Of a stretch of 45,009 nt of DNA, positions 3,440 to 30,713 are shown in pieces (positions within the stretch are counted from its first letter, which is position 1; each line of letters opens with the position of its first letter). The notes under the pieces were generated by a model that did not search any database, was not told the origin of the DNA, and worked only from the letters and a program-made list of their open reading frames with translations. The DNA comes from a virus. Both the position numbers and the translations under genes were made by a program. The DNA lies in UHGV virus genome UHGV-0208172. One strand, given 5' to 3'.

Positions 3440-5530
3440 ATGTCAAGCGGATGCGGTGACGTTTTAAGCCTGGCGGATTTACAGACCGCCAAGAAACACC
3501 AAATATTTGAAGCTGAGGTTATCACCGGTAAATCCGGTGGGGTTGCTACGGGTGCTGATATTGATTACGCAACAAATCAGGTTACGGGGCAGACGCAGAA
3601 GACCCTCCCTGCCGTGTTGCGTGATGCGGGTTTTTCTCCGGTGTCGTGGGACTTTTCTACCGGTGGCACTCTCACGGCTAACGACCGCGACAAAGTGGTG
3701 TATGACCCCGTAAGTAAAACATGGTATTCGTACGCAGGTACGTTACCAGTTGTTGTACCCGCTGGTTTTAATCCGGTAGGTAACGCTAACTGGAAACCGC
3801 AGACGGACCCCGATTTGCGTAACGAGCTTACCGCATACGATGGGACCACGGTTGACCAGATTGCCCATCGAGTTACGACAATAAAGTCATTTGAAGAGTT
3901 TGGCGCCATTGGCGACGGGGTAACTGATGATACCTCAGCGATGCTGGCGGCATTGTCGTGGTTGGAGGGGGTGCCGTTTGGTAAATTAACAGGGCGAGTT
4001 GGGGCTAAATACCGCATACAACAGAGCCTGGTAATGAAGTTCGACGGCTCTTATACACAGGAGGTTACCTCTACAAGGTATATTGATTTCACCGGAACAA
4101 CAATCGTAGCAGGAGCTTCTGGCATCACATGCTTAAGAATGAGCCATGATTTCTGCCACATCATAAATCCAGTAGTAATTAACCCAGACAACTACTCTGA
4201 CGTTATCGCCTACGCTATCGCGCCAGAAGACGAATCTCAGACTACCGTACGCGTATCACAGCAATTCTGTGTAATGGAGAATCCACGCGCAAGGGGAACC
4301 AAAATTGGTCTTAAGTTTAAACCAGGGCCTACAGTCGGTGGGAGTAATAGCGGTGCGTATTACCACTCAATTATGAACCCAAACTTTGAGCGAGTAGACT
4401 GCGGGTTTTATTTCGAACGTAGTGTAAGCGGAGATAATAATAACACCCGCATTCATATATACGACCCGCACCATGCAACTGGGAACTGTAGCTTCTGGAT
4501 TGAAAGTACAGATAGCCTTCGTGTATTCGGTGGGCACTCAGAAAATATTACACAAGGCACTTGGCCCGCAGACGTGCCTTGTGCAGTGCGTGTTGTTAAG
4601 ACGGTGAACAGTGACACCCAAGTTGCCGGTAACTTGCGATTCTATGGTTACTTTGGCGAATTATGCACTCGTGGGTATCAGATAGATGATAACGTTGGTA
4701 CGTATAACAATTTCTTTGATTGGAGTTGGGTATTCTTAGACCAAACCCCGACACGTGCAGTAGATAAACCTTTTGAATCATTAGCAGAATTCGATGGTGT
4801 ACTTGTCTCTAGTAACTGGGATTCAACCCAGAAGAATATTGCTGGTTGTCGTAGAAGAGAATCTGGTAAACAGGCAGTAATCATACAGAACGATGATACT
4901 TTACCAGCGGAATTATACTCAGACACGAAGTGGAAATTCACATCATCTGTGCTGGAAGCTCCTGTTCAGGATGTAAGGAATAATAACAGTGGTATTCAGA
5001 TTATTGGGGCTACTGACGCAGGGGTTTTAATAACCACAACTCCAGGAACTAAAGGAATAACCCTGTCCAGTTATGATGGCAAAACATCATCTGGAAACCC
5101 AAATGGCGACTTCACCATCACCGGGTATAATGGGTTCCTTCCTGGTGCGGATAACTCTACAGTGCTGGGGTATACAGGCCACAGGTGGAGCGCAGTGTAC
5201 GCTGCGTCCGGGACTATAGTTACATCTGACGAAACGTACAAGACATTCACTACCCCATCCGACGACGAGGCTGCGCGCGAAGCAAACGCAGCAAAAGAAA
5301 TACGTTGCTCACTTCGTAGGTATAAGTTTAACGAGTCTGTCGCTGCTAAAGGTTTCGAATCGGCACGCACACACTTCGGGGTAGGTGCGCAGACAGTGGA
5401 GTCTATTCTGATGTCCAATGGGTTGAACCCTGATAATTATGCGTTTCTGTGCAAGGATGAACTGGATGGTCGGTTTGTGTATTCAATACGGTATGAAGAA
5501 TTATTGGTTTTCCTCATGATGTATTCATAA
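3440..5530 (+). CDS. tailspike / tail fibre with right-handed beta-helix depolymerase domain (pectate-lyase superfamily-like)
   Basis: 696 aa; RBS AAGAGGA upstream; motif FGAIGDGVTDDT typical of pectate-lyase-fold phage depolymerases; last gene of tail module; possible C-terminal chaperone-like domain. Confidence 0.8.
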   Translation: MSSGCGDVLSLADLQTAKKHQIFEAEVITGKSGGVATGADIDYATNQVTGQTQKTLPAVLRDAGFSPVSWDFSTGGTLTANDRDKVVYDPVSKTWYSYAGTLPVVVPAGFNPVGNANWKPQTDPDLRNELTAYDGTTVDQIAHRVTTIKSFEEFGAIGDGVTDDTSAMLAALSWLEGVPFGKLTGRVGAKYRIQQSLVMKFDGSYTQEVTSTRYIDFTGTTIVAGASGITCLRMSHDFCHIINPVVINPDNYSDVIAYAIAPEDESQTTVRVSQQFCVMENPRARGTKIGLKFKPGPTVGGSNSGAYYHSIMNPNFERVDCGFYFERSVSGDNNNTRIHIYDPHHATGNCSFWIESTDSLRVFGGHSENITQGTWPADVPCAVRVVKTVNSDTQVAGNLRFYGYFGELCTRGYQIDDNVGTYNNFFDWSWVFLDQTPTRAVDKPFESLAEFDGVLVSSNWDSTQKNIAGCRRRESGKQAVIIQNDDTLPAELYSDTKWKFTSSVLEAPVQDVRNNNSGIQIIGATDAGVLITTTPGTKGITLSSYDGKTSSGNPNGDFTITGYNGFLPGADNSTVLGYTGHRWSAVYAASGTIVTSDETYKTFTTPSDDEAAREANAAKEIRCSLRRYKFNESVAAKGFESARTHFGVGAQTVESILMSNGLNPDNYAFLCKDELDGRFVYSIRYEELLVFLMMYS

Positions 5531-14797: not shown

Positions 14798-15013
14798 ATG
14801 CAACCATCTGAACTAGGCATTCGCGTAGAACAACGCCGTAAAGAACTCGGCATCTCCCAGCGCCGTCTGGCTGTCCTGGCCGGCGTTTCCCAGGGCGCGA
14901 TTAACCAGCTTGCACTCGGTGTAACTCAGGACGTCCGCCCGGCAACGCTGTTTAAACTGGCGGAAGTGCTGGAAGTAGACGCCAAGTGGCTGGCGTTAGG
15001 TGAAGGGGCTTAA
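14798..15013 (+). CDS. XRE-family helix-turn-helix transcriptional regulator (Cro/CI-like)
   Basis: 71 aa; HTH QRRLAVLAGVSQGAINQLALG; RBS AAGGAG; only + strand gene within the leftward module. Confidence 0.8.
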   Translation: MQPSELGIRVEQRRKELGISQRRLAVLAGVSQGAINQLALGVTQDVRPATLFKLAEVLEVDAKWLALGEGA

Positions 15014-15029: not shown

Positions 15030-17297
15030 CTATTCCAAATCCTCCTCTGTCACTGTCAGCATTTCATTCGGTTCGTATATTGTCTTCGGAATCTTGTTAT
15101 CCGTTATCCTGGTGTTAAGCCGGTAGCGGCCAGGTATTATCTGATTGTTTTCGTCGGTTCCTGGCACAAGATACCCCGCCTCAACCATTTTCTTGATCTT
15201 CCCGCGTTCTATAGCTTCTTTGGAGTTAAACGCCTTCGCGTTGGGGTCGGACTGTGCGAGCTTATTAGCTGCGGCTACCGTGATACCTTCGTTGCCGTTG
15301 TAGGTTCCTTCCGCCAGTTCAAACGCCGCCAGTATCGTGGCCTCCGAACTGTTGACGGCGTTCTCTACGGTTTTACGTACGTTTTCTTTACCTTCTTTCG
15401 ACAGCCCCTCTTCCCGCTCTTTCTCCTCGTCGGTCTTGAACGGCTCGAAGCCCCACGGCATCAGCACAAGCGCTTTGTGCGGCTCTGGCAGGTCCAGGTT
15501 TACGATTGTGCCGTATTCCTCTGTGCTACCGAGGAACTCAACCGCGCGGTATTCTTTCGGCGGCGGGGCTTCGCGGAACTGTACCGACTCCAGCACCATG
15601 CCAACCGTCTTCTGTTGGGGTCCGTGTTTGAATTTCGAGTGGTATACATTTATCTGACGGTCTGTCGCGCGTTCGATTGTCAGTTCCACGTCGACACCCG
15701 CGTACAGCGCCCCACTGCCACGGGCTTTCTTCCCGCCCTTAGGCGTATGGTGGACGACGCCCACCGCGGCTTTAGTCGCATCACGTACTTCTTTCAGGAT
15801 GGCGATAACTTTACCCATGCCGATTGCCGTTGATGAGCTGTTCTCGTCGAACTTATCAATCGTCAGGGCCAGCGTCTGGTTGAGGGTGTCGAACGCAACC
15901 ATGCCAATAGGCTCGTCGCCAGCGGTTTCGCGCATTAGCTTAATCAGGCTTTTCAGTTTTCCGACTTCACCCATGTCGATGACATGTACATAATCTTTAC
16001 CTTCCGCGCCATATTTAGCCGCGAGCGCATCAATACGTGTACGTGTGGCGGCGCCGCCCTCGCCGTCGATATAGAAATGGTGGCAACGCTGGGTATCCGC
16101 CCCCGCAAACCGGTATCCGGCGGCGCTGAGGTACATCATCCCCATCGTATAGAATGATTTGTACGTGCCAGATTCCCCGACAATATCCCAGATACAATCC
16201 GACGGCATGTACCCCTCAACGACGAAATCAGCCTTTACCGGTTCTGGTAACTCGTCCCCCTCTGAGTCCTCATCGTCTTCCAGGTCGTCGAGGCTGCATG
16301 AAACAGATTCACGCGCACCCCATCCTATAGCCTCAGCCACTTCACTGAACGGCAGCCCGGTCGCATCGCACGCATACTTCCACACCTCTTTCGGCGACAT
16401 ACCTTCGGTTGCCGTAATGTCGGTGTCGTGAATCATGGTTACGTTCGGCGCTTCATATCCCTCGCGTGGGAAGCACAACAGGAAGTCGTCCGGGCGCGGC
16501 GTCGGGTCGCTGTAGTTTTCTGCGTGTTCATGTGTAGCTGGCATCTTAAGGCCTCGGGGGGTCATGATGCCACCGTACTCGAACGCCAGTGCCTCGAACG
16601 CGTCTGTAAACGCGGTGCGCAGTTCTTCCGGTATCTGGTAGTCAGATGCGCTGCTCACCTCGTAATCCGGGATGCCTTCCAGTAATTCGTCCGGGTCAAT
16701 CAGGTCGTTACGGCGCGACCAGATAACAGTAGAGCCAACCGGCGGCAGGTACATAGGCTGGGACAGAGTGAAACCGCTGCGGTCAGCGCCCATGCCTTTG
16801 AAGAAGTGCTCCAGCAAGCCATGACGAACACGGATGATGTCTCCGCCTTCAACCGGGCGGCCCAGCGGCATGACGACACGAAAGCGCGGTGACTCATCGG
16901 TATGTGATGCCGTGGTATAGATACACATTGCCTGGCGGCTGCGCTTAACCAGGCGCACCGCTTCCTGATACTCTTCCGGCGTCGCACTGTCGAAGTCAAG
17001 ATACGCCAGCGATGATTTGCTTACAGACGCGTCACAGCGGTAGAAGAAGCCTTTGCGCGCTTGCTTAAAGTCACCGGTTTCCGGGTCTTTTACGGTGCTG
17101 TGCGTTGAGTCACACGCGGCAGTGATATAACCAGGCGCGGTCTTAGGGTTAATCCCGTCGCGAACGGCATCGAGCGGCCGGATTAACTCTTTCAGGTCGT
17201 CCAGTGTTGCCGTGTGTGTGGTTCTGACGTTTATATCCTTTTTCTCCGCCCGCGCGTTGCGACGAGACCACGAGTAGGATAAAATTACATCGGACAT
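15030..17297 (-). CDS. primase-helicase (N-terminal primase-like region, C-terminal RecA/DnaB-like AAA ATPase)
   Basis: 755 aa; Walker A GESGTYKS, Walker B-like IGMVAFD; ends with EEDLE. Confidence 0.75.
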   Translation of the reverse strand: MSDVILSYSWSRRNARAEKKDINVRTTHTATLDDLKELIRPLDAVRDGINPKTAPGYITAACDSTHSTVKDPETGDFKQARKGFFYRCDASVSKSSLAYLDFDSATPEEYQEAVRLVKRSRQAMCIYTTASHTDESPRFRVVMPLGRPVEGGDIIRVRHGLLEHFFKGMGADRSGFTLSQPMYLPPVGSTVIWSRRNDLIDPDELLEGIPDYEVSSASDYQIPEELRTAFTDAFEALAFEYGGIMTPRGLKMPATHEHAENYSDPTPRPDDFLLCFPREGYEAPNVTMIHDTDITATEGMSPKEVWKYACDATGLPFSEVAEAIGWGARESVSCSLDDLEDDEDSEGDELPEPVKADFVVEGYMPSDCIWDIVGESGTYKSFYTMGMMYLSAAGYRFAGADTQRCHHFYIDGEGGAATRTRIDALAAKYGAEGKDYVHVIDMGEVGKLKSLIKLMRETAGDEPIGMVAFDTLNQTLALTIDKFDENSSSTAIGMGKVIAILKEVRDATKAAVGVVHHTPKGGKKARGSGALYAGVDVELTIERATDRQINVYHSKFKHGPQQKTVGMVLESVQFREAPPPKEYRAVEFLGSTEEYGTIVNLDLPEPHKALVLMPWGFEPFKTDEEKEREEGLSKEGKENVRKTVENAVNSSEATILAAFELAEGTYNGNEGITVAAANKLAQSDPNAKAFNSKEAIERGKIKKMVEAGYLVPGTDENNQIIPGRYRLNTRITDNKIPKTIYEPNEMLTVTEEDLE

Positions 17298-17589: not shown

Positions 17590-17840
17590 TTCACGTTCTC
17601 CTTAATCCACGCTTCCACTTTCTCCGGGTCAAACGTACCGGGCTGACGGCGGCCCATAATGCGGATACAACAATCCGGGAACTTCCCACTCTTTAACCAG
17701 TTATTAAGCGTGCGGCGAGTAACCCCGATACGCTCAGCTACTTCATTCTGTGTCATCTTTAATCTCCTTAATTGTTTCACGCGCGAACGCTGTAGCTGTG
17801 CCGTATTTATTGGGGCAGTATCTGCTCTCATTATGCCCAC
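17586..17840 (-). CDS. AlpA/excisionase-like (MerR-superfamily) HTH DNA-binding protein
   Basis: RIGVTRRTLNNWLKSGKFPD ... EAWI pattern typical of AlpA-family regulators; strong RBS AAGGAG before ATG at 17756; true start ambiguous between 17756 and 17840. Confidence 0.65.
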   Translation of the reverse strand: MGIMRADTAPINTAQLQRSRVKQLRRLKMTQNEVAERIGVTRRTLNNWLKSGKFPDCCIRIMGRRQPGTFDPEKVEAWIKENVK

Positions 17841-17895
17841 TAAACCACGCTTCTATTAGCAACTCTTTCAACTGTTCTTCTGTCAAAGTAACCAT
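17743..17895 (-). CDS. small hypothetical protein (about 50 aa), first gene after leftward promoter
   Basis: ATG at 17895 with GAGGG RBS; frame conflict with long form of the HTH gene. Confidence 0.3.
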   Translation of the reverse strand: MVTLTEEQLKELLIEAWFSGHNESRYCPNKYGTATAFARETIKEIKDDTE

Positions 17896-17927
17896 TCTCA
17901 AACCCTCATTATCAGTTAACGAAGCCA

Positions 17928-17956
17928 AGTATACATTGCGAATAATGGGAAATCAA
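17928..17956 (-). promoter_or_regulatory. putative leftward early promoter (TTGATT-N17-TATACT)
   Basis: Hexamers with 17-nt spacer at the head of the leftward operon. Confidence 0.45.
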
Positions 17957-17971
17957 ACATAATCACACCTA

Positions 17972-18000
17972 TTGACATTACGAAAATCTTCGTTTAAGGT
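17972..18000 (+). promoter_or_regulatory. putative rightward promoter (TTGACA-N17-TAAGGT) in divergent control region
   Basis: Consensus -35 with 17-nt spacer and TAnnnT -10. Confidence 0.4.
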
Positions 18001-18144
18001 GCTTCTATATCTTAGTTACTTTGATTCCTGTTCACCTTGTAATACCCGCTTGAAACGCAGCGGCGCACCAGCGCCAGCGAAGTGTTAAGCGGCAGATTAC
18101 TGAACATATGAATTATAGTAACTTCCCTTCCTAAGTATCTCCTG

Positions 18145-18228
18145 TTGCCCTGGGCAAGCTCTATTCTCATCGGCAGCATATCTTTTAAGCCACTGATAAT
18201 TAAAAGTTTCTATAGTTGCCGTGGGCAA
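18145..18228. promoter_or_regulatory. pair of 13-bp palindromes TTGCC-N3-GGCAA (18145-18157, 18216-18228), putative operator sites
   Basis: TTGCCCTGGGCAA and TTGCCGTGGGCAA, centres 71 bp apart, in the 455-bp divergent non-coding region. Confidence 0.45.
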
Positions 18229-18331
18229 TGATGAGAGTACTTCACTCCGCTGGGGTGGGCTAACGCCCACCCTCTGCGTTGCGTACTCTTTTAAGAAATG
18301 AAAGAATCACAACGGCAACGTAACTATTCTC

Positions 18332-18360
18332 TTGCACACCCCAACATAATAGGATACTAT
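18332..18360 (+). promoter_or_regulatory. sigma70-like early promoter (class A: TTGCAC-N17-TACTAT) with conserved leader
   Basis: TTGCAC ACCCCAACATAATAGGA TACTAT TCACTTACCGAAACGAGA...GAGGAG; near-identical copies at 19738, 30714-30742 (-) and 40437-40465 (-). Confidence 0.6.
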
Positions 18361-18385
18361 TCACTTACCGAAACGAGACAGAGGA

Positions 18386-18586
18386 GTGAGGGTTATGTTT
18401 AAGAAGGGTCAGTTGGTTAAAACGATGTACGGTAGCTTAGGTATTATTGAAAAGAAATCGACAGTGTACCGAAGTTCTTATGTCGTTAGCTTACTCAGGG
18501 AGCACGGGTTAAGTTCCGCGGCGTATTACCGAGAGTATGAAATGAAACTAATTGGCAACAATTTTAAATTCAAAGGGGCGAAGTGA
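18386..18586 (+). CDS. hypothetical early protein (likely start ATG 18395, 63 aa)
   Basis: First ORF after class A promoter; RBS GAGGAG. Confidence 0.5.
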   Translation: MRVMFKKGQLVKTMYGSLGIIEKKSTVYRSSYVVSLLREHGLSSAAYYREYEMKLIGNNFKFKGAK

Positions 18587-19431: not shown

Positions 19432-19556
19432 CAGGTCAATAGGTTACTATTTGGCTTTGTGACTTACGCTGCTACACAGCAGCGTATCATTTTTCTCATT
19501 TTTGTTCTATTTCACCAAACGCAACAATCGAAGCGACTATTGCAGGAGATGCAACA

Positions 19557-19737: not shown

Positions 19738-19766
19738 TTGCACACTGGGATAGAATAGACTACTAT
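19738..19766 (+). promoter_or_regulatory. sigma70-like early promoter (class A: TTGCAC-N17-TACTAT)
   Basis: TTGCAC ACTGGGATAGAATAGAC TACTAT TCATTTACACGAACGAGAGGAG. Confidence 0.55.
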
Positions 19767-19797
19767 TCATTTACACGAACGAGAGGAGAGGCTGAAG

Positions 19798-30679: not shown

Positions 30680-30713
30680 TTCTAAATTCCTTATCTCTCG
30701 TTTCGATAAGTGA

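Follow-up and report, generated by a model that had tools for sequence, protein, structure and literature searches.

The window, a stretch of 45,009 nucleotides deposited as UHGV virus genome UHGV-0208172, is a complete Kagunavirus-like siphovirus genome (Guernseyvirinae) of roughly 45 kb, and the subject of this analysis is the non-coding control region that separates its leftward and rightward genes (positions 17928–18385). The conserved feature of this region is a folded, modular, non-coding transcript region of ~320 bases, and not the pair of protein-binding palindromes proposed in a preliminary description of the window. It is highly probable (roughly 0.8) that the region constitutes a structured, modular non-coding transcript unit. 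The function favoured for this unit, by analogy with lactococcal phage c2, is that of a transcription-dependent replication origin acting in cis, a tentative assignment with a probability of about 0.35.

The control region is the largest non-coding gap of the window genome, and the homologous gap of the annotated relative fEg-Eco06 (500 bp) is also the largest intergenic space there, the next largest being 349 bp. A search with 501 bases around the control region matched 450 phage records, which represent Escherichia, Salmonella and a few other enterobacterial phages, with a best match of 94.6% (Escherichia phage BEU35 and fEg-Eco06). No match to the control region was found in E. coli genomes, indicating that there is neither a prophage copy nor a long stretch of host complementarity. 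A search of plasmids returned one match only (91% to the control region), in a record filed as a non-mobilizable plasmid from an E. coli blood isolate (GenBank accession number CP088689.1; 44,086 bp). Its length is that of a Kagunavirus genome, and the record is probably a mislabelled phage genome that was either present in the isolate or a contaminant of its assembly. For the comparative analysis, 44 loci were fetched from viral contigs using the adjacent helix-turn-helix (HTH) protein as anchor, which is 79–100% identical across the compared phages. These loci contained 41 distinct intergenic versions, or 42 including the window, of which 13 are type-1 Kagunavirus, 12 are Jerseyvirus and 17 are type 2 or 2b versions, the types being those of the 5′ module described below.

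The predicted rightward promoter, P_R, is followed by ~320 nt lacking an open reading frame (ORF), and this sequence folds on the + strand as three domains (Table 1). The segment from 18004 to 18295 folds at −102.6 kcal/mol with a z-score of −6.56 vs shuffled sequences, the minus strand of the folded region scores −4.53, and representatives of the other module types gave −4.2, −4.5 and −2.9, such that all types fold better than their shuffles. In the 25 type-1 sequences, 29 consensus pairs were found with 99.4% of cells paired, compared with 30–51% when the 3′ partners were slid by 1–3 columns as a control. Changes on both sides of a pair were seen in 21 cells, a number that none of 500 shuffles reached, and many of the conserved G·U pairs can form on the + strand only, which is the strand that P_R would transcribe. 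The preliminary description had also mentioned a small RNA as a possibility, and it is this part of its proposal that holds, as the + strand folds far more stably than shuffled sequence and compensatory and wobble changes preserve its helices across relatives.

Domain I is a long irregular hairpin built on four basal helices (18014–19/18118–23, UUC/GAA, 18031–34/18101–04, and GUAAU 18039–43/AUUAC 18096–100), which RNAalifold and pair counts found to be 100% paired across the 25 type-1 sequences. Three of the basal pairs have changed on both sides (CG in 13 sequences and UA in 12; AU, GU and GC; GC in 18, AU in 4 and UA in 3). The apex of this hairpin is variable, with 16 distinct versions of 38–52 nt that belong to five unrelated sequence classes, and every version begins its helix exactly 2 nt past the basal stem, with two to three pair types at each of the first five pairs. 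The end of domain I leads into a highly conserved core, in which nucleotide identity between Kagunavirus and Jerseyvirus is 83%, compared with 71.5% for orf77 and 67% for the helicase-primase gene.

Domain II lies within this core and consists of an outer helix (UUGCC 18145–49/GGCAG 18172–76), an inner helix (UGGG 18151–54/CUCA 18166–69) and the loop CAAGCUCUAUU, with 11 pairs that are 98.5% paired in the 25 sequences. All of the variation in domain II is wobble-compatible, and on the + strand only (U·G to C-G in nine sequences, U-A to U·G in eight and A-U to G·U in 12); in nine sequences, one such change abolishes the terminal pair in the competing hairpin that the palindrome itself could form. 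The type 2 module is mostly unrelated in sequence and has its own hairpins with covarying pairs (for example UA in four, AU in three and CG in three), and its domain II has the inner helix as GGG/CCC and retains the loop motif. Type 1 and type 2 thus share the inner helix of domain II, its loop motif and the junction that follows. Of palindrome 1, therefore, one half supplies the 5′ strand of the outer helix (UUGCC/GGCAG) and the other half that of the inner helix (UGGG/CUCA). In the conserved fold, neither palindrome has its two arms paired with each other; the left arm (UUGCC) instead pairs with a sequence further downstream, different for each palindrome, and the palindromes are best read as by-products of the folded RNA.

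The two 13-bp palindromes had been put forward as an operator array for a dimeric regulator, possibly an adjacent AlpA-like HTH protein. Direct reading of the sequence confirmed that they are present, palindrome 1 (TTGCCCTGGGCAA) at 18145–18157 and palindrome 2 (TTGCCGTGGGCAA) at 18216–18228, with a start-to-start spacing of 71 bp or about 6.8 helical turns, close to the seven turns given previously. They are the 3′ ends of a 25-nt imperfect direct repeat (18133–18157 and 18204–18228; 80% identical). The exact sequence TTGCC-N3-GGCAA occurs at these two sites and nowhere else in the 45 kb, though with one mismatch allowed there are four matches vs 1.67 expected, and it is therefore the clustering of the sites that is unusual and not the motif itself.

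When the 42 versions were compared, site 1 was found to be a perfect palindrome in 12 of the 13 type-1 Kagunavirus versions but in none of the 12 Jerseyvirus versions, where it is degraded to TTGCCTTGGGCGA or CTGCCTTGGGCGA, and in none of the 17 type 2 or 2b versions, from which it is absent. Site 2 is perfect in the window only (1 of 42), and the pair is therefore private to the window genome. In the closest relatives site 2 reads TTGCCGTAAGCAA or TTGCCGTGAGCAA, GTGCCGTAGATTC and TTGCCGTAGGTC also occur elsewhere among the relatives, and only (T)TGCCGT is retained in the 3′ variants B and C. The sites are located at about +139 and +210 from the inferred start of P_R and 104–187 bp upstream of the second promoter, P2, and hence are not over a promoter. 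The adjacent protein, moreover, is a 56-aa member of the MerR-like excisionase family that matches HTH_17 at 2.1e-7, and is not equivalent to the Pseudomonas AlpA antiterminator, a protein of roughly 150 aa with a ring-forming segment and an HTH (PMC9371919). As the palindromes are not conserved in phages with 79–100% identical HTH proteins, and lie ~140 and 210 bp past the start, an operator pair for this HTH protein is not supported.

An operator array at the DNA level, in which the TTGCC sites would be bound by a dimeric HTH_17 or Cro-like regulator and the hairpins would be incidental, is consequently improbable, and the model survives only in a looser form that combines four (T)TGCC sites with clustered AGTWWCT. 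Besides the confinement of the exact palindromes to this region, the looser form draws on the presence of four copies of (T)TGCC(G/C) that make two inverted pairs (18146 and 18217 on the + strand; 18172–76 and 18313–17 on the complement), on AGTWWCT being present at four places within 200 bp vs about 24 in 45 kb, and on the HTH allele, the promoters and the 5′ module moving together as a single cassette. However, site 1 has been lost in Jerseyvirus and type 2 versions despite HTH proteins that are 79–89% identical, and there are substitutions that retain the RNA pairing via G·U but break the DNA motif (GGCAG to GGCGG in eight sequences and TTGCC to CTGCC in nine). Of the AGTWWCT copies in 18014–18211, two pair with each other in domain I and the remaining ones are at the head of the 25-nt direct repeat; most relatives have an additional copy at the module junction.

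A repeated dyad that would suit an operator better, AATAG-N4-CTATT, is positioned over the −10 of seven promoters, one of which is P2. This second promoter, absent from the preliminary description, is located directly upstream of the first of the small rightward genes (ATG at 18395), with a conserved 5′ untranslated region between them. The 33-nt element that makes up P2 recurs at 30710 and 40433 (− strand), its 18-nt dyad core, ATAATAGGNTACTATTCA, has seven occurrences in the window vs 0.05 expected, and a PHIRE analysis of Kagunavirus fBC-Eco01 reported this motif as well. On sequence grounds the dyad is a better operator candidate than the TTGCC palindromes, and the dyads upstream of a Cro-like gene suggest an autoregulated repressor-operator circuit at the early promoters. 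Two of the copies precede this XRE/HTH_3 (Cro-like) gene at 14798–15013. Further along the + strand, a terminator with a 9-bp stem and a T-rich tail (19465–19486) closes the first rightward gene cluster and is followed by a P2-like motif (19752–19769), indicating that the rightward genes are organised as several short transcription units.

The divergent, back-to-back promoters that had been described previously were both recovered, P_L by consensus scan and P_R by conservation. The −10 of P_L, TATACT (AGTATA on the + strand), is kept in all three unrelated left-leader types, and the promoter is predicted to drive the gene for a 50-aa ORF, the HTH_17 gene, ORF77 and the helicase-primase gene. 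P_R has a weak −10 that matches the consensus at 3 of 6 positions and fails the −10 rule of the scan. In type 1 and type 2 versions, however, the element is retained with the form TTGAC(A/T)-N17-TAAG(G/T/C)T, the two type 2b versions have TTGAAA-N18-TATAAT in its position, and the homologous site is annotated as a promoter in the record of phage Jersey. Transcription from P_R would start near 18007. In the annotated relative fEg-Eco06 (locus L168), an annotation is given for a T7 Gp2-like inhibitor of host RNA polymerase (4485–4670) but for no phage RNA polymerase gene, which is odd for a phage that must depend on the host polymerase throughout and bears on how the promoters are used over time.

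In agreement with the earlier statement that the region holds no credible ORF, none was found to be conserved on either strand in 36 of the 42 versions, the remaining six being impossible to delimit. The longest ORFs in the versions are 23–98 codons and are inconsistent in strand, frame, start codon and length, with truncations that differ between relatives. Coding on the minus strand was considered and rejected, as neither the 55–57-aa ORFs found here nor the 106-aa coding sequence annotated in Bas73 is conserved.

Domain III encloses the GC-rich hairpin noted previously, an 8-bp stem-loop at 18253–18272 that direct reading confirmed as GGGTGGGC-TAAC-GCCCACCC. This hairpin, which is extended by pairing of GAGAGUAC (18233–40) with GUACUCUU (18283–90), has nine distinct versions, among which stem positions 4, 5 and 8 show compensatory changes, and its loops belong to stable tetraloop types (UAAC, or UUCG in variant C), which is a feature of RNA. 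In variant B, which is present in most Kagunavirus versions, the hairpin is followed by TTTAGTT and has the shape of a canonical terminator; in the window, a UCUUUU run at about 18287–18292 follows the extended helix only. A candidate closing helix for the whole domain is formed by GUUGCCGU (18215–22) and ACGGCAAC (18312–19), just upstream of P2. TGCCG and CGGCA, mostly 96–114 nt apart, are present in 39 of the 42 versions around three unrelated inner sequences, and the GUUGCCGU/ACGGCAAC pairing closes the domain in the minimum free energy (MFE) folds of variants A, B and C. However, no covariation was found in this helix among the compared versions, and it is therefore a candidate only, for which a reading at the DNA level is also possible.

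The region is a mosaic of modules. The left part, which includes the HTH gene and both promoters and ends at about 18197, is of three types (1, 2 and 2b), type 1 being found in the window, in other Kagunaviruses and, at about 70% identity, in Jerseyviruses. From 18197 to P2 there are variants A (in the window), B and C and a Jersey variant, and several Jerseyviruses carry the B and Jersey units in tandem as a domain-III-like duplication. The junction AAG-NN-CTGAT is present in all module combinations, and the 5′ and 3′ parts reassort freely there, the natural combinations being type 1 with A or B, type 2 with A or C, type 2b with B, and Jersey type 1 with B and the Jersey module. The non-coding region of variant C includes a (CTCA)n microsatellite of about 3 to 7 copies (loci L023, L026, L027, L032, L035 and L044), and a short (GTGA)3 run is found in the equivalent place in one variant A locus (L041).

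The helicase-primase encoded nearby (15030–17297, − strand) is also a two-part mosaic, in which the N-terminal half comprises residues 1 to about 340. Its half types W and X are about 27–30% identical where they can be aligned, and the combinations W/W, X/X and X/W are found among Kagunaviruses (loci L018, L019, L023, L024, L034 and L038). The 3′ variant C and the X-type C-terminal half are found in exactly the same 20 phage records, and variants A and B accompany the W-type C-terminal half even when the N-terminal half and the HTH cassette that lie between them both belong to the other type.

Table 1. Features of the control region and related elements in the window
Feature	Position	Strand	Basis or remark
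P_L, predicted leftward promoter, TTGATT-N17-TATACT	17928–17956	−	consensus scan, 9/12
P_R, predicted rightward promoter, TTGACA-N17-TAAGGT	17972–18000	+	conservation; perfect −35
Domain I, long irregular hairpin	18014–18123	+	MFE fold, RNAalifold, pair counts
Variable apical insert of domain I	18044–18095	+	sequence classes compared
Highly conserved core	18117–18197	+	ends in junction AAG-NN-CTGAT (18187–18197)
Domain II hairpin, contains palindrome 1	18145–18176	+	pair counts, 25 sequences
Domain III, encloses GC hairpin	18215–18319	+	complementarity, MFE folds
Palindrome 2	18216–18228		conserved part is left half (T)TGCCGT only
GC hairpin, GGGUGGGC-UAAC-GCCCACCC	18253–18272	+	compensatory change
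P2, predicted second promoter, TTGCAC-N17-TACTAT (18332–18360), with dyad AATAG-N4-CTATT over −10	18332–18363	+	repeated motif
ATAATAGGNTACTATTCA dyad copies	11970, 14708, 14752, 18346, 19752 (+); 30711, 40434 (−)	+ and −	arms AATAG/CTATT over −10 of TTGCAC-N17-TACTAT

In the proposed unit, the sigma-70 RNA polymerase of the host would start at P_R and transcribe ~320 non-coding nt, which would fold into domains I, II and III, and P2 would then serve the first rightward gene. If the unit is an origin, the RNA made from P_R would open the DNA beside the replication genes and might also prime it, with the folded RNA governing the formation or processing of an RNA-DNA hybrid. This function is favoured because the region is the largest non-coding block and adjoins the operon of the helicase-primase, and because the conserved P_R is dispensable for gene expression, as P2 comes after it. 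A further reason is that the phage has a T7-like replisome, with a Pol I-type polymerase and a helicase-primase, and no RNA polymerase of its own; in fEg-Eco06 a Pol I-type DNA polymerase is encoded and no RNA polymerase gene is annotated. The co-occurrence of variant C with the X-type C-terminal half, which holds across a differing intervening cassette, is an additional hint.

The layout also matches that of c2-type origins point by point. In Ceduovirus (c2, bIL67 and 923) the origin is a non-coding region between divergent gene blocks that is flanked by the first two promoters of one block, has no ORF or ribosome-binding site behind the first promoter, and is of several sequence types among close relatives (PMC7150918). 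The non-coding PE1 transcript has been implicated in initiation, with its sequence or structure thought to matter (PMC7150918). The c2 origin has been shown to drive plasmid replication. In the window, P_R and P2, predicted by consensus and conservation only, are likewise situated between the leftward and rightward genes, no conserved ORF is found behind P_R, and the stretch between the promoters is of discrete types (1, 2 and 2b in the 5′ part; A, B, C and Jersey in the 3′ part). However, the host of c2 is Gram-positive, the phage groups are unrelated and share no sequence similarity, and the c2 origin has been demonstrated experimentally whereas the one proposed here is putative.

More broadly, the arrangement is reminiscent of transcript-primed origins such as the primary origin of T7, the R-loop origins ori(uvsY) and ori(34) of T4, and RNA II of ColE1, in that a promoter appears to read into a non-coding stretch beside or within a replication module, and in that the replisome of the phage is of the Pol I and helicase-primase type. 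Function of the ColE1 primer RNA depends on its fold. The T7 primary origin consists of promoters and an AT-rich region, and T7 uses its own RNA polymerase with no requirement for RNA structure. Unlike these origins, the region contains no identified G-rich hybrid-forming segment or defined AT-rich unwinding element, and the resemblance is one of analogy only.

Several observations weigh against an origin. Structural conservation fits any functional RNA equally well. Natural 5′/3′ chimeras abound here and are viable, unlike the chimeric c2-type origins, which were reported to be non-functional (PMC7150918). The link between variant C and the X-type helicase-primase may stem from clade (backbone) structure and not from a functional coupling. 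The same helicase-primase (96–99% identical) is found with two unrelated 5′ modules, and the 5′ module is thus not an initiator-specific site. There are no tandem repeats and no iteron array in the region, and the iteron sequence of P4, TGTTCACC, has one copy there (18029) and four scattered in the genome vs 1.2 expected. The GC-skew minimum at about 18 kb was discarded as a sign of an origin, since it merely tracks the switch in coding strand. The GC hairpin of the window has the tail TCTGCGTT with no U tract directly past the stem, and was not called by the terminator scan. The literature searched for these genera yielded no transcriptome, origin mapping, non-coding RNA or binding report, and the one genome-reduction paper concerns Skatevirus, which is outside this group.

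An origin of the P4 type, with iterons bound by the alpha primase-helicase, was also rejected, the single TGTTCACC copy not being kept in Jerseyvirus. A search of PDB sequences for an origin-binding domain in the helicase-primase found nothing, and the AlphaFold single-sequence model of its C-terminal 116 residues had a mean predicted local distance difference test score (pLDDT) of 49.5 and was not used. A more specific form of the origin proposal, conceivable though somewhat doubtful, envisages an undescribed RNA family common to Guernseyvirinae (at least 450 genomes), which host polymerase would transcribe from P_R, the strongest-looking early promoter. Its folded 5′ domains and GC-hairpin 3′ domains would be swapped as cassettes, and the RNA would form the origin core, with a 3′ module fitted to the C-terminal half of the helicase-primase.

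As the structural and covariation evidence is identical for both, it is also possible, and nearly as likely as an origin, that the P_R transcript is a regulatory RNA or leader. A cis-acting leader of the put type would modify RNA polymerase so that it reads through downstream terminators; alternatively, the leader may be processed or stabilised via its long hairpins, as at the RNase III sites of T7, or the transcript may be a discrete early small RNA, about 270–290 nt long, that ends at the GC hairpin and acts in trans. The terminator shape of the hairpin in variant B, and hence in most Kagunavirus versions, is in keeping with these possibilities, as are the additional terminators of the rightward block such as that at 19465–19486 with the P2-like element at 19752 behind it. 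The extreme sequence conservation of loops and single-stranded segments suggests contact with conserved host machinery. On the other hand, P2 already serves the first gene, such that a leader is not needed for its expression, the GC hairpin of the window is without an adjacent U tract, long complementarity to E. coli genomes is lacking, and there is no likeness to any curated RNA family. Searches of Rfam 15 (E ≤ 1) with the window region and with five loci that span all module types returned no match. ARAGORN found no tRNA or tmRNA in the region, and a scan of viral contigs with a degenerate pattern of the core returned chance matches only.

Among antitermination systems, the nearest analogy is with put of phage HK022, which is also a structured, protein-free RNA element just past an early promoter and upstream of terminators. 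The put RNAs are cis-acting antiterminators whose action is independent of the terminator sequence, and the free reassortment of the 5′ and 3′ modules would fit such action. However, put consists of two stem-loops of about 70 nt that are present in both early operons, as putL and putR, whereas here there are three domains over ~320 nt on the rightward side and no second copy of the element in the leftward operon.

A resemblance to lambdoid PR′-6S RNA-tR′ with Q, and to Pseudomonas AlpA at PalpB, lies in the combination of a constitutive promoter, a short non-coding leader, a terminator-like hairpin and a small regulator gene nearby. A module of the Q/AlpA type was nevertheless rejected, as the adjacent 56-aa HTH_17 protein is without the N-terminal ring-forming part. 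Neither a binding element nor a pause element was established. The sequence at about −1 to +5, where a −10-like pause element was looked for, is TATATC in Kagunavirus and TGTATC or TGTAAC in relatives, and the critical A2 and T6 are not kept. The leader here is, in addition, under strong structural selection, which is not required by Q. Elements of the boxA/boxB (nut-like) type were likewise rejected, as GCUCUAUU and the apical pentaloops match only weakly, by eye, and are not kept in Jerseyvirus or type 2 versions.

The exchange of modules among otherwise near-identical phages, and the tandem domain-III-like units in several Jerseyviruses, could also be read as the outcome of an arms race with host immunity or of competition with co-infecting phages, the transcript being an early decoy or counter-defence RNA. 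Such a role would be in keeping with its position, first in the early block and preceded by a strong promoter. This explanation is unlikely, as the RNA does not resemble known antitoxin RNAs, CRISPR repeats or any other curated family, tandem repeats are lacking, and the core is under strong purifying and not diversifying selection.

The genes to the left of the control region encode, in order, a 50-aa ORF (phrog_20928), the 56-aa HTH_17/MerR-like protein, for which the usual annotation is "excisionase and transcriptional regulator", a 77-aa protein (phrog_5169) and the 755-aa replicative helicase-primase. The 50-aa ORF (17743–17896, − strand) is an extra insert between the HTH_17 gene and the control region, and is present in the window and two other loci (L004 and L013) but absent from Jersey, K1ind1, Bas73 and most other relatives, in which the HTH gene directly adjoins the control region.

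Promoters and hairpins are commonplace in the divergent control regions of phages, but the conserved modular RNA structure described here is unannotated in the records examined and absent from Rfam and from the literature searched. If the transcript does serve replication, this would be the first transcript-dependent origin defined in a virulent enterobacterial siphovirus. Phages of the Kagunavirus and Jerseyvirus groups are widely isolated for therapy and biocontrol and are now being taken up as small engineering chassis, and the region is usually left unannotated or is mis-annotated as a hypothetical protein. The structured, modular RNA is a concrete candidate for an origin or an early control element in these phages, and those who engineer their genomes should be warned that the region is not a neutral insertion site.

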